DNA of 63,261 bases, counting the filler, from Sluysia triapertura (Eukaryota): the NCBI GenBank assembly GCA_046118255.1. It is 5 parts of 5 records of this genome, joined end to end, with 100 filler letters (N's around TTAATTAATTAA, not from the genome) between each part and the next. Parts side by side here need not be neighbours in the genome. Positions count along the whole stretch, not along the records: positions 38,416 to 52,025 come from JBJNIA010029277.1; 4 more parts are not named here. One strand, 5' to 3'. Under the pieces are notes generated by a model. That model was given only the letters and a program-made list of their open reading frames with translations. It ran no database searches and was not told the origin of the DNA. The position numbers and the translations under genes were made by a program. Of the stretch, positions 43,635 to 48,116 are shown piece by piece (position 1 is the first letter of the stretch; the number at the start of each line of letters is the position of its first letter).

Positions 43635-43741
43635 ATTTGGGGATAATGTTGTTTTGGATATTATATTTTAGTGAAGTTTAAATTATGAATATTGAATGTG
43701 ATGTTCCAACATATTTTAAGTTGTGAGTGTTGGTCACTACA

Positions 43742-43757
43742 TCAGCCCCCTCTGAAG
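43742..43757 (-). promoter_or_regulatory. Polypurine tract
   Basis: Minus strand AGAGGGGGCTGA directly before the 3' LTR TGT. Confidence 0.75.
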
Positions 43758-43831
43758 AAGCGGAGCGGTATATTTTTATTTTTGTGAAAGATCAGATATC
43801 TTCAGTTGAATTGTGTGTAACCCTTTTTCGT

Positions 43832-44614
43832 TTAGAAGGGTGTCAGTATTGTTAAGGTTACTGATTTTTCTGTTGTTAGATTATGGGAATCATCTTCAAT
43901 TAGCATAGTTGCTGGTTTTAGTTTACACCAGTTTACTGTTTTAGGTTTTCCGTCTATGTTGATTGTAGCTGTATTCTTGTTTGTGTTAAAGTGAACGACT
44001 TTGTATGGACCGGTGTATCTTGGTTGAAGAGATTTTTGATTTTCTGTTTTTAGCCACACGAATTTACTATCTAGAATATTTTTGGGTATAAAAATGTGAG
44101 GAATCTCGTGTCGTGTTGATTTGTTTAGCTCATTGAAGTATTGCATAGATCTGTTTGATTCATTGTGAAATTGAATTCTATTGTTGTTGTTGTGATTCTT
44201 GAGCTTGATTTTGATGTGATTGAGTTGTTCGAAGGACTTGGTTAAAGTTTTGTTGTGACAATCGACTAGGAGCTTGTAATGAGTGAGAAAGTCTGCTCCT
44301 ATTATCGGTTGCTGGATTGCGGCAATTAGAAAGGTCCATTCGAAGGTTTCGTTGAAGTGTGACAGTTTGAATTGTAATTTTGTGGAGCCGAAGCAGGTGA
44401 CTGTTGTCCCGTTTGCTGCTGTAAGAAAGGCGCGTGTCTGTGGTTTGTTTTTGATAAAATGTTGAGGAATTGCAGATACGGCAGCTCCGGTATCTATTAG
44501 AAAATCCAATTTAGTATATTTAAAGTCAATAAAGGTAAGCGGCAGTGTGAAGATACCATTGATTGCCAATTGTTTTGGTCTGACCACTTTGACCGTTGGC
44601 AATTTCAGTTTTTT
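43832..44614 (-). CDS. pol: Truncated Pol: retropepsin fused in frame to the integrase C-terminal GPY/F module
   Basis: FLIDTGAAVSAIP, LTAANGT and PIIGADFL (aspartic protease), then FVWLK...SLQPRYTGPYKVV...TVNWCKLKPA. No YxDD, RNase H or DDE motifs. Confidence 0.9.
   Translation of the reverse strand, partial: KKLKLPTVKVVRPKQLAINGIFTLPLTFIDFKYTKLDFLIDTGAAVSAIPQHFIKNKPQTRAFLTAANGTTVTCFGSTKLQFKLSHFNETFEWTFLIAAIQQPIIGADFLTHYKLLVDCHNKTLTKSFEQLNHIKIKLKNHNNNNRIQFHNESNRSMQYFNELNKSTRHEIPHIFIPKNILDSKFVWLKTENQKSLQPRYTGPYKVVHFNTNKNTATINIDGKPKTVNWCKLKPATMLIEDDSHNLTTEKSVTLTILTPF
44562..44614 (-). promoter_or_regulatory. Putative programmed -1 ribosomal frameshift signal
   Basis: Gag ends ..CCT ACA AAA AAC TGA, giving the heptamer A-AAA-AAC (44614-44608). 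The protease is in the -1 frame. A stem ATTGCCAA/TTGGCAAT with inner GGTC/GACC starts 4 nt downstream. Confidence 0.75.
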
Positions 44615-45620
44615 GTAGGAGGTTTTAGATTTTGTTTAAAGTAGATGCAGCCATCCATTCATCTTTTAGAACTTTTTTGGAATTGTGAATGGTATACACA
44701 TAAGTTCTTAATTGTTAAATTTGTAGATTTGTTTGCAAATCTACATCCTAGTAGGCAGGATTTAGCTTGTTGTTGGAATCTGTTGTGGTAGTAGCTGATT
44801 CCGTTAAAAGGTCATTTGTTTCGTGTAGATTTATTTGAATTAAAAGAATTTGTTGAAAATCTGGGAGAACTCGTTATTCTTGTTGGAGAGTTCTCTCTTG
44901 ATTTTGAATATAGAATTTTTGTAAGATCGGCTACTTGTTTTGTTAAATTTTGGACTTGCACTAATAAATTTTGTTACATTTTTGCTGTTGGACGAAGAAT
45001 CATTCATTGCATAGAGGGATTGTTGATGGTTCTTGTTCTGTACAGCAATGATGTTGTCGGCGATCTTGGCTAGCTCGTCAGTTTTGGTGTTTTGTGTTCC
45101 TACGAGTATGCCTTGAACTGTAAGGAGTATGGCGTCGAGGAATAAGCGTTTTAGGACATCGTGATTTTCATCGATTTCACAACCAAAAGGTGCTAAGTCC
45201 GTTTTTATTTTCGCTAGGAATTCGGAAGGTGTTAGAGTACCTAATGTTTGTACTTTAAAATAATCCTGGAAAACCTTTTCCGAGTTTGGTCTATATTGTT
45301 GTATAATTATTTGTTTTAAATCATCGTATGGGGATTTAGAAGTGATGCATGTTTGTATCTTTGGGCTGATCTTACTTAATAACGTCTGGGGCAGCATTGC
45401 TAACGTATGATTGAACTTAGCGGTTTGATGTTTAATCGCGTTAGTTTTGAACATGGCTTCAATGACCAAAAACCATGTGCTTGGAGAACCTGTGTCGTCC
45501 AAGAAAAATTTTGATGACGACGGGATACTGATATTTGTTATTTGTTCTTGTTCAGTACGTAGTGGGATTTCTGGGTCGTCATCTGTGCCACCAGGTAATT
45601 GGTGGTTAATTGATATAGTA
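44605..45620 (-). CDS. gag: Ty3/gypsy Gag (frameshifted and with stops in this copy)
   Basis: PSTWFLVIEAMF, PYDDLK..II, QTLGTLTPSEFL..I, RLFL and LAKIAD.I. Two knuckle-like motifs follow: SYYHNRFQQQAKSCLLGC and CVYHSQF...DGC. Confidence 0.9.
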
Positions 45621-47069
45621 GCCCCCTGTGGGATTTCGTAGTAGCTAAATCTTAAATGGGGACGTAAAGGTTGCGCCTGATAGGTAAACCATGCCTAAGA
45701 TTGTTTACTTAACTTATTAAGTATGTTAATAGGGTCAGAATTTTTAACTTTAAAGCGCGAATTTACAGGGTCCGCATTTTATTGTTATTTTTATGATTTT
45801 GTTGTCTGAGGTTTCTGAATTGGTAGCTGTATTAATACTCGTATGTATATATCGCTCGTATGCTGTGTCTGCGTCGATTATTGTTCCGGGCAGAACTTGT
45901 TTTGTTTAAGAATTGAGCGAAGCGTTGTTACTTTGGTATTGCTGTTATGGTTTATAGTTTGGTCGGAAATAATGACTTTTGTTTTGTTTGATTTTTGGTT
46001 TTGTATTGTTTAGATCCGTTTGTTGGGATAGCTTTGTTGTTCTATATTTAAAGTGTTGGATTGTTTTTGAATTTGTTGGCTGGTCTTGTTCTTAGTGTTT
46101 TTCTTTGGTTGATAAAGTGTGTTGATAATAGTATTGATTTGCTTAGAACTTGGATTGCTGGTCTTTTGGTTTTGTAACTTGATTTCGGAGTTTAAGTTTT
46201 TGGGTAATTGTTTCGGTAGGTGCTGGAACATATTAGTTTGTATAGTTTTGTTTTCGTTGATTTGTTGTTTGTTATTGTTTTGGCAAGTGTTGACTTTTGT
46301 TGGATCGGATGTGGTCATCCATTGATTCGTATTGGCCATGGTGGTACATTTCATTTGGGGACCTTCTTTACAGATTTGTGCGAAGGATTTTTGCCCATTT
46401 ATTTTAAAATTATTTATAGACCAGTTGGGTTATGTATTACGCTCTTGAGTAAATTGGGGTTGGCTAAGCCCGTTTTTAGTGTTGATATGATTGTGACTTA
46501 TATTATGATCCGTTGTGAAGGTATGACTTAAAGTAGTGACAAACTCATAACCCAAAATTTTATTAGTTTTATATGTTATAGTTGTCCAGACAAAAGGTGT
46601 AGTATTTGATTTAAAAGAATTTTGATTTTAATATCATGATGAAGTTTATTGTTTATTTTAGTAGATGAAGTTGATGTTGTGTGATTTATTAGTTGTTTAA
46701 AGGTACAATCATGTGTAAAAGTATTTATTGCAGGGATTAAAGTTTTGTGAGTATTTGTGATTATAAGGTGAATTGATGAAATAATTTAATGTTTGATATT
46801 TGAAGGGTTGTTTGTCATTTGTTTTGTGTGATGGAGGTTGTAATGTGTTTTGTATTGATTGTTCCGAGATGGTTTTGTAAGTGAGTTTTGAAGATTTGGT
46901 GTGACTGTGGAAATTAGTTACGTGATTTTGTGTTTGATAAGATTGTTTATTATTTATGTTGGATGATAGAAGCTGTGTTGTAGTGTCTCTTGTTGGTTTA
47001 GATTTACGATTTGTTGTATGTATGCGGTTTTTCATGTCGGATGGTTGTTTTGGTGGAGATTTGATCTTT

Positions 47070-47669
47070 CTATGTAAAATTTTTTCTGTTGAATATTTCA
47101 ATTAGTGTAGATGTTTTGTTTATTGGTTGAATAATGATATTATTGTCTGGACTGATATTGTTGTTATTCTTATTTTTGTTAAATGTTTTTTTTGCAGGAG
47201 ATTTATTGATGTTGCTTAAGTGTATATGGTTCTTTTGTATCTTTTTTGGTTTGTTATTCTTTGAATTTTGTTTAGTGCATTCTGACTTATGTGGAAATAT
47301 AATATGTAAAGAATTATTTTGTAATCGAAAAATAACATGTTTGTTCTTTGGTTTTATCAAGTAATCTATATTCATGTTAGTAAAAATAAAATTGTTATGA
47401 GTTTCAATGAAATTATTAGGTTTAAAAAAATTAAAATTTTGGGTTTTAAAGGATTCATTGTCTTGGATTAAATTATGAATAGTTCTATTATCACACAAAG
47501 GTTTATTAACGATGTCATCATGAAAGGTATAGATAATATTATTATTGTTAAGATTGTTATTGTTGTACTTATGTTTATATCCTTCAATGATGAGGTCGTA
47601 TTTATGGAATAAAAATTTTTTATAATAATATACATAGATAAACAAACCTGGATCCGTGAAGTACAACAT
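47070..47669 (-). CDS. Extra ORF in the LTR element leader (N/K-rich; may continue through 46709-47101 and 46010-46354)
   Basis: ATG ~20 nt after the PBS, 199 codons. No recognisable domain. The open frame may partly reflect A/C strand bias. Confidence 0.35.
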   Translation of the reverse strand: MLYFTDPGLFIYVYYYKKFLFHKYDLIIEGYKHKYNNNNLNNNNIIYTFHDDIVNKPLCDNRTIHNLIQDNESFKTQNFNFFKPNNFIETHNNFIFTNMNIDYLIKPKNKHVIFRLQNNSLHIIFPHKSECTKQNSKNNKPKKIQKNHIHLSNINKSPAKKTFNKNKNNNNISPDNNIIIQPINKTSTLIEIFNRKNFT

Positions 47670-47688
47670 TTGTGGTGGGGCCTTTTTG

Positions 47689-47702
47689 TACTCCTGACAC
47701 CA
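47689..47702 (-). promoter_or_regulatory. Primer binding site complementary to the tRNA-Leu 3' end
   Basis: TGGTGTCAGGAGT lies immediately after the 5' LTR and is complementary to ...ACTCCTGACACCA of tRNA-Leu. Confidence 0.8.
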
Positions 47703-48116
47703 ATTTGGGGAGTATGTTGATTTGGAGATTATATTTTAGTGAAGTTTAAATTATGAATATTGAATATGATGTTCCAACAAATTTTAAGTTGTGAGTGTTG
47801 GCCACTACAAAAGATATTGATAAAAACACGGATAATTTAATCACCTCTGATATTACTCGAATTAATAGACAAAGGATTAAATCGAAGTCAAGAGAACAGT
47901 TATTATAAGACAAAAGCTAGAATATTATTAAGAAAATTGGTCAAATAGAAAGAGTCGAAGAACCCAAAGCTTTATTGAAAATTAAATAGTGAATTAATTC
48001 TTTTAAATAATTACTTAAAAAAGCAATTATCTTCCAAAAAAGCAATTATTTTTTCTAAAAAAGAAAATTATCTTCTATAAATAGTATAGAATCCTCTAGC
48101 AGCTTCTAGAATTACT

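Follow-up and report, generated by a model that had tools for sequence, protein, structure and literature searches.

The window analysed here is a 63,261-nucleotide stretch from Sluysia triapertura (GenBank assembly GCA_046118255.1). At 43635..47809, on the minus strand and within the ungapped stretch 38416-52025, it holds an LTR retrotransposon with the following features.

43631..43634, no strand: left copy of the target site duplication, read as 4 bp (lengths of 5 or 6 bp suit equally well)
43635..43741, minus strand: 3' LTR, 107 bp, with its left junction spanned by an exact contig
43746..43753, minus strand: short polypurine tract (PPT) of 8 purines, 4 nt ahead of the 3' LTR
43838..44167, minus strand: integrase C-terminal remnant, running from the helix after the missing core through a GPY/F SH3-like barrel (~43895-44098) to a disordered tail
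44167..44242, minus strand: zone with the breakpoint of the in-frame deletion, which took RT, RNase H and both zinc finger and core of the integrase
44243..44533, minus strand: whole retropepsin with DTG active-site motif
44605..44614, minus strand: -1 slippery heptamer A_AAA_AAC (44614-44608, in the frame of the Gag 3' part), then the Gag stop
44605..44994, minus strand: Gag 3' part, shifted in frame relative to the 5' part and interrupted by stops, holding two damaged CHCC knuckles
44995..45694, minus strand: Gag 5' part with a DUF7041 capsid-like domain (~45266-45487)
45700..47689, minus strand: 2-kb leader, A-rich and G-poor, carrying successive open frames in sense
47690..47702, minus strand: primer binding site (PBS), 13 nt, adjoining the 5' LTR and matching the 3' end of tRNA-Leu
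47703..47809, minus strand: 5' LTR, 107 bp
47810..47813, no strand: target site duplication, right copy

The LTRs, target duplication, PBS and PPT described in an earlier sequence-only reading were all located. The LTRs are identical at 100 of 107 bases, and the length of the target duplication (4, 5 or 6 bp) is set by the choice of LTR end, which is AAT under the 4-bp reading and AAA under the 5-bp reading. One exact contig (42768-43689, 0 differences) crosses the left junction of the insertion. Loci matching the PBS were called as tRNA-Leu in 7 of 11 cases, the other 4 receiving no tRNA call; no tRNA gene was found in the window, and Rfam matched nothing in 43500-48000. The Pol frame stops ~90 bases ahead of the 3' LTR. 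The same reading had the element encode only Gag plus a protease-integrase-tail fusion. Both are present, Gag in broken form, but "only" overlooked the leader, whose sense frames (47070-47702, 46709-47101, 46576-46785 and 46010-46627) reach 210 codons at the longest. These frames came nowhere near a Pfam cut-off and, with Atlas scores of 0.84 and at most 0.82 at low recognition, they matched no family; the leader is possibly a broken extra ORF.

Pol is a single frame, open over 43835-44635 and 256 codons long when counted from the slippery site. Scanning the element in six frames with domain profiles derived from 98 full-length Pols matched the protease at E 8e-34 and the integrase tail at E 8e-21, whereas RT, RNase H, the integrase zinc finger and the integrase core gave no profile match in any frame (best E 0.28 or worse). 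The claim of one open frame from retropepsin into a GPY/F tail, lacking RT, RNase H and the integrase core, is thus upheld. Most of the proposed ~55-residue linker is integrase-derived sequence; the breakpoint falls between Pol-frame residues 132 and 157 (~44242-44167), and ~760 residues are absent relative to the nearest full-length Pol. The protease scores above the PF00077 cut-off, and its model (pLDDT 90-96 by block) resembles retroviral and Ddi1 proteases (Z 9-10.7). The integrase remnant is 47% identical in alignment to residues 897-1001 of P0060, and its barrel (pLDDT 88-98 by block) is modelled like that of foamy virus integrase (Z 6.4, rmsd 3.0, 65 aligned). Folded without an alignment the tail modelled poorly (pLDDT 49), and its best match by sequence among solved structures was a weak one to a retroviral integrase C-terminal entry (E 0.065). 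The two halves derive from one CsRn1-like lineage: in both the protease and the tail tree, which were built without outgroup clades, the element groups with P0060, P0061 and P0325 at a support of 0.98.

The Gag 5' part was recognized by PF23055 (E 4.5e-12) and by tblastn to CsRn1 Gag (E 6e-12), and no in-frame ATG lies ahead of its DUF7041 domain. The Gag frame shifts near 44990, and in-frame stops follow at 44976, 44814 and 44661. Both tandem CHCC (CX2HX9CX3C) knuckles (44796-44743 and 44700-44647) are damaged at one position, the first having lost its first cysteine and the second containing a stop. At 44796 all aligned depth (42 contigs) carries another base, so this lesion looks private to the copy. 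With Gag broken in these ways, this copy cannot make a capsid, contrary to the suggestion of a lineage that supplies its own processed capsid. The frameshift signal was correctly described as retained, the heptamer lying just before the Gag stop; no significant or stable structure was found downstream of it (z -0.93).

CsRn1 itself matches the protease (43%), tail (32%) and Gag of the element. In the accessible part of its description (PMC2582038), the CsRn1 clade (CsRn1, PwRn1 and AgCR) shares with the element the CX2HX9CX3C knuckle spacing, a DUF7041 Gag, a -1 gag-pol overlap, a GPY/F tail, the lack of a chromodomain or env and, as far as the alternative LTR ends allow, a short target duplication and an atypical LTR 3' end. 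The same portion of that source gives the clade a 4-bp target duplication, LTR ends of TGT...AAA or TGT...ATA, and a tRNA-Trp PBS, whereas the PBS here departs from the published motif and fits tRNA-Leu. We therefore file the element as CsRn1-like and not as a member of the clade. It also differs in its 2-kb leader, its missing RT, RNase H and integrase core, and its two tandem knuckles, compared with one in each of the 15 matching database proteins.

The family to which the element belongs is highly repeated in sequencing run X1, which contains 0.49 of the sampled words. Flank contigs stand at a depth of 10.5-24.8 and element bins at 522-147,672, a depth that cannot be read as copy number; where the element is variable, single places reach 406-909. 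The Pol junction was spanned by none of the best 8 of 6,461 contig pieces, and it consequently rests on the assembly. A depth of 65,336 in the junction bin was considered as a sign of many junction copies and set aside because single places within that bin vary from 688 to 229,875. About 1% of aligned contigs continue unlike the stretch, a weak signal. At sites in the Gag 5' part and protease where this copy is at odds with nearly all depth, 9 of 16 changes are synonymous versus ~29% expected (p 0.02), and across all 22 listed coding sites 9 are synonymous (p 0.15), both counts being drawn from the best 40 of 1,096 rows. Selection behind this excess could date from a full-length ancestor.

Taken together, these data describe an old, dead CsRn1-like Ty3/gypsy copy that lost the pol core in a deletion with roughly placed breakpoints, stems from a single parent lineage and has decayed. 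Gag-protease-only elements are a well described kind of defective element (ATHILA, Sabrina/WHAM). In the portion available of a report on ATHILA (bioRxiv 10.64898/2026.03.20.713144), they form the commonest class (934 of 2,322) and, like the present element, keep intact ends, gag and protease after a large internal deletion of RT, RNase H and integrase. According to that partial text, ATHILA is a plant lineage with a ~3-kb deletion and an established abundance, whereas here the deleted form was seen in one copy, with an integrase barrel fused in frame. RLG_Sabrina_SA / RLG_WHAM, RLG_Quinta and TR-GAG, as far as the available sections of their descriptions go (PMC9744471, PMC11302176, bioRxiv 10.64898/2026.03.01.708851), share the semi-autonomous design of Gag or Gag plus protease with neither RT nor integrase, Sabrina_SA/WHAM being an amplified Gag-protease-only class; they are multi-copy with intact Gag, and several have a known partner, whereas Gag is broken here and no partner was seen. 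LTRs, PBS, PPT, gag and protease are present in our element and RT and the integrase core absent, as in Gag-protease non-autonomous elements, but the intact Gag frame of such elements is missing from this copy. Mouse IAP 1Δ1, in the excerpted account of PMC6466679, is likewise a non-autonomous LTR element with a new fusion ORF created by an in-frame internal deletion; it derives from a retrovirus, has lost 1.9 kb of gag-pol, is proven to be mobile and is reported to have a function in cis. Among the titles and abstract openings listed by searches of non-subscription literature, none concerned a protease-integrase-tail fusion in a CsRn1-like element. The architecture, not recognized by the sequence-only reading, is nevertheless less unfamiliar than was stated, given the common Gag-protease-only ATHILA, the IAP 1Δ1 precedent and protease-to-tail joins in 7 of 324 database relatives.

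Our preferred reading, to which we assign a probability of roughly 45%, is that the element comes from a non-autonomous Gag-protease subfamily that carries the integrase tail as a passenger, and that this copy is dead. One in-frame deletion, probably older than this insertion, would have removed ~2.3 kb of pol and left an ancestor with LTRs, PBS, PPT, Gag, frameshift and protease. Such an ancestor would have built its own particles, matured them, and depended on intact relatives for the RT and integrase that reverse-transcribed and integrated it, as is thought for Gag-protease-only plant elements. The integrase tail would have had no role and most likely stayed because it adjoins the PPT. In favor of this subfamily, the left breakpoint lies at most ~25 codons past a whole protease with no RT remnant, where by our rough count only a few per cent of RT-removing upstream breakpoints would land; every cis signal is present, the family is highly repeated, the 9-of-16 synonymous share exceeds expectation, and Gag-protease-only elements form an amplified class elsewhere. 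Against it, the contig pieces inspected gave no further copy of the junction, Gag is broken in this copy, other skips in the family stand at single-copy depth, and the synonymous count over all 22 listed coding sites is weaker (p 0.15). Searches for a further example of the fusion gave no database protein of 146-468 residues above 49% identity and no candidate among short proteins sharing words with the junction-spanning residues 105-210; scanning metagenomes with the fusion (66 pattern matches) or with P0061 (23 matches) confirmed no locus. One join in three falls in frame by chance. In a neutral simulation of a 255-codon frame decaying at the age of this copy, the frame was free of stops in 45% of runs (21-72% across the range tried), so an open Pol frame does not point to selection. 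The idea of a stable non-autonomous lineage remains plausible and precedented, and the breakpoint falls just past the protease, but the two arguments that had been offered for it do not discriminate.

Ranked close behind, and a serious contender, is a one-off event in which a full-length insertion later lost its pol core through illegitimate recombination, or the core dropped out in the single reverse transcription that produced this copy, with the frame kept by chance. The odds of an in-frame join and of an open frame under neutral decay both accommodate this history. Of the best 15 of 88 joints that skip internal sequence, 13 stand at a depth of 22-32, which is single-copy depth; joints are unreliable at such likeness, but one-off deletions look common in the family because several skips stand at that depth. 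The protease-to-tail breakpoints in database relatives are scattered, with gaps of 4 to 81 residues (5 further proteins retain parts of RT or the integrase core), and full-length proteins (P0060, P0061 and P0325) are the nearest relatives. A one-off deletion accounts less readily for a breakpoint directly after a whole protease and ahead of a whole barrel, and no loose end occurred at the junction among the best 6 of 1,317, a weak observation.

We regard as improbable a selected fusion, in which an amplified lineage encodes a protease-tail protein acting in cis, for example by binding nucleic acid or helper integrase and so drawing RT-integrase into its own particles, much as IAP 1Δ1 aids its own RNA (PMC6466679, from the portion available). 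Each domain is complete and folds when modelled, the join is in frame behind a retained slippery site, 4 contigs carry a 3-base in-frame insertion at 44107, and the spider gene models P0244 and P0329, from different contigs, have one protease-to-tail join in common. Opposing this, all 3 of the 3 listed tail sites at which this copy departs from its family are non-synonymous, and a tail beside the PPT would probably persist without a function. The spider and thrips joins were read from gene models of eukaryotes and could be introns introduced by prediction; a pair of thrips models, 99% alike, differ by 16 residues at their join. Similarly improbable is an amplified CsRn1-like semi-autonomous family of a non-plant eukaryote that would encode Gag, a frameshifted protease-barrel fusion and a ~600-residue accessory protein from the leader, the barrel recruiting helper RT-integrase or capturing its own cDNA in cis. 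Least likely is a misassembly that collapsed the interior of a high-copy repeat: the assembly is gapped and fragmented (five N-gap sites in the window, four having a spacer), the family is highly repeated, run X1 is incomplete and the inspected contig pieces do not span the junction, but the element sits in an ungapped stretch, its target duplication agrees, an exact contig covers its left junction, no misjoin-inviting repeat was found at the Pol junction, and an error is unlikely to yield an in-frame join between domains.

If the junction is common to many insertions, the Gag-protease semi-autonomous strategy, mostly described from plants, extends to a CsRn1-like lineage, and the fusion offers a natural test of whether the integrase barrel has a role independent of the catalytic core; should the junction prove unique, this is an ordinary deleted copy. 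Either way, the element marks a sub-lineage not described before, set apart by its Leu primer site, paired CHCC knuckles and long leader and mainly of interest for transposon classification. Elsewhere in the window, an RT fragment at 54400-54800 (33-41% to full-length Pols) was considered as the missing part of Pol; it sits 6.6 kb beyond the LTRs and is therefore not the lost part.

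The element is an internally deleted, decayed CsRn1-like LTR retrotransposon with all cis signals present.

47809 to 43635, minus strand: the element, LTRs and internal features
45700-47702, minus strand: 2-kb leader between primer site and Gag, a chain of sense open frames
44614-44608: slippery heptamer, within the Gag 3' frame and immediately ahead of the Gag stop
43835-44635, minus strand: open Pol frame

The LTRs, target duplication, primer site and polypurine tract (PPT) claimed in the sequence-only reading were all found. The 107-bp LTRs mismatch at 7 sites (divergence 95% interval 2.7-13%), the target duplication is readable as 4, 5 or 6 bp, a 13-nt primer site lies directly 3' of the 5' LTR, and 8 purines stand just ahead of the 3' LTR. 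Sequencing run X1, the one run found to contain the stretch, comprises 735 million letters of contigs, which points to a eukaryotic host whose genome is large and repeat-rich. When the X1 contigs were aligned to the window, one corresponded to 42768-43689 with zero differences and therefore crosses the left insertion junction. The surroundings are AT-rich (G+C 18-37% per 2 kb across the window). Both flanks (42000-43634 and 47810-48274) are repeated, with bin depths of 4,877-16,931 in X1, and a decayed open frame runs on from one to the other across the insertion site, so the element is probably nested inside an older repeat.

The Pol frame comprises 256 codons counted from the heptamer and was correctly described as open from the retropepsin (PR) into the integrase C-terminal GPY/F region (the tail). 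Its two segments align to the ends of the best full-length Pol, P0060 (1,029 aa), residues 27-131 with 31-135 (44% identity) and residues 149-254 with 897-1001 (47%), so that ∼760 residues are absent. Profiles from 98 full-length Pols matched PR and tail; in six frames of the element they detected no RT, RNase H, integrase zinc finger or integrase core, in agreement with the original description. Alignments with the nearest relatives placed the breakpoint between Pol residues 132 and 157, and the supposed ∼55-aa linker thus consists mostly of integrase residues that precede the GPY/F barrel. Trees of 49 proteins, one built from PR alone and one from the tail alone, placed P0060, P0061 and P0325 beside the element (support 0.98 in both), which points to a deletion inside one lineage, rather than a chimera, as the probable origin of the fusion. 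In the predicted structure, two domains were modelled with confidence and joined by a loose linker. The first matched retroviral and Ddi1 proteases (Z 9-10.7 by structure comparison), and the second matched SH3-like barrels, including that of foamy virus integrase (Z 6.4, rmsd 3.0 over 65 aligned residues). The latter score is middling, and Tudor and KOW domains reach it too.

Gag, from which a processed capsid of the lineage's own had been proposed, is broken, a point that the sequence-only reading missed. Its 5' part matches CsRn1 Gag and holds DUF7041 (E 4.5e-12), with no in-frame ATG ahead of that domain; the frame shifts near 44990, stops occur in the 3' frame at 44976, 44814 and 44661, and of two tandem CX2HX9CX3C knuckles one is without its first cysteine and the other contains a stop. 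This copy is dead. At 44796 the whole aligned X1 depth carries a different base from the element, which suggests that this lesion, at least, is private to the copy. We filed the element as CsRn1-like: CsRn1 was among its database matches, and the CsRn1 clade described in PMC2582038 resembles it in Gag domain, in the spacing of the knuckle, in the -1 overlap and in having a GPY/F tail, but uses a tRNA-Trp primer site, which the element lacks. A pattern made from the element's primer site matched 11 loci in viral contigs (7 tRNA-Leu, 4 without a tRNA call); these tRNAs are not the host's.

The leader frames total ∼600 codons with a high content of N, K, T and Q, and Pfam and further family searches gave no match to them. 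The longest has 210 codons, a length attained by 1 of 2,000 dinucleotide-shuffled leaders and by none of 2,000 shuffles restricted to its own segment; such shuffles do not preserve three-base periodicity and the genome is full of AAT runs, so the open-frame length may be compositional. Similar leaders occur in other copies (four X1 contigs of 303-330 bases, with 31-49 differences and depth 11-22), and the stretch 46267-46517, at depth 57,518 versus 1,869 and 4,711 for its neighbors, is common to many copies.

The element's family is clearly highly repeated. With 6,238 X1 contigs aligned to the window at 80% likeness, depth was 10.5-24.8 for unique flank contigs, 522-147,672 for element bins and 406-909 at single places in variable parts, although summed depth is not copy number. 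Our preferred account, held tentatively at a probability of about 0.45, is a joint one: the pol deletion would be older than the insertion, a shortened ancestor would have provided Gag and protease while borrowing RT and integrase, and the tail would be a passenger adjoining the PPT. A one-off deletion is nearly as plausible, selection for a PR-tail fusion is unlikely, and misassembly is the least probable account. Of the 15 joints listed (of 88 in X1), 13 lie at depth 22-32, suggesting frequent sporadic deletions in the family, although joints at 80% likeness are unreliable. Depth within the junction's bin ranges from 688 to 229,875; at the junction no spanning contig piece appeared among those listed (8 of 6,461 in X1) and no loose end among those listed (6 of 1,317). 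Of 4,000 neutral simulations run with half the LTR divergence, 45% left the Pol frame free of stops (72% with the lower rate and 21% with the upper), which fits neutral decay; the open frame does not point to selection. Among the listed coding sites, 9 of the 16 in PR and the 5' part of Gag differ synonymously (p 0.02), but none of the 3 in the tail and none of the 3 in the 3' part of Gag; pooling all 22 gave p 0.15. These sites belong to the 40 difference rows, out of 1,096, that the depth tool picked for listing.

Among 324 relatives collected by three database searches, seven join PR to tail with <100 residues between and differing breakpoints, so the architecture recurs; 5 further relatives retain parts of RT or integrase core. 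Six of the seven are gene models of spider, wasp, moth or thrips origin whose joins may be predicted introns, and the seventh, P0192, lies on a JGI contig of 7.7 kb. The spider models P0244 and P0329 have one common join on different contigs, and the thrips models P0263 and P0331 are near-identical yet 16 residues apart at the join. In each pair, Gag, PR and the integrase tail follow one another in that order on at least two contigs, and the models may be either real shortened families or introns predicted across full-length copies.

The Gag-protease-only class is already known, and this variant is new in detail. Published sources describe ATHILA elements so reduced by a ∼3-kb RT/RNase H/integrase deletion (934 of 2,322 in six Brassicaceae; bioRxiv 10.64898/2026.03.20.713144), wheat Sabrina_SA and WHAM with coding limited to Gag and protease (PMC9744471), Gag supplied by Quinta (PMC11302176), 28 GAG/PROT-only families in sugar beet (bioRxiv 10.64898/2026.03.01.708851) and the in-frame deletion fusion of mouse IAP 1Δ1, reported to be cis-acting (PMC6466679). 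The portions available of PMC3286476, PMC12471100 and PMC11952523 held nothing decisive for the element, and a literature search of titles and abstract openings found no report of a PR-integrase-tail fusion in a CsRn1-like element.

Elsewhere in the window, decayed Ty3/gypsy-type reverse transcriptase fragments lie at 54400-54800 (minus strand; 33-41% identity to full-length Pols) and a piggyBac-type DDE transposase fragment at 36198-36581 (minus strand; PF13843, E 1e-9). A tandem pair of 90-bp units, 90% alike, occupies 21285-21464 within a 251-codon minus-strand open frame that has no Pfam match. The scaffold gaps at 11321-11420, 26552-26651, 38316-38415 and 52026-52125 are each built from a 12-base spacer, which has stops in every frame, flanked by 44 N on either side; they account for the top-ranking repeats of the window, inverted as well as direct. 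A MITE-like fold-back element of ∼525 bp is present at 15722-16247, with inverted arms of 95 nt at 93% and inner arms of 82 nt at 87%.
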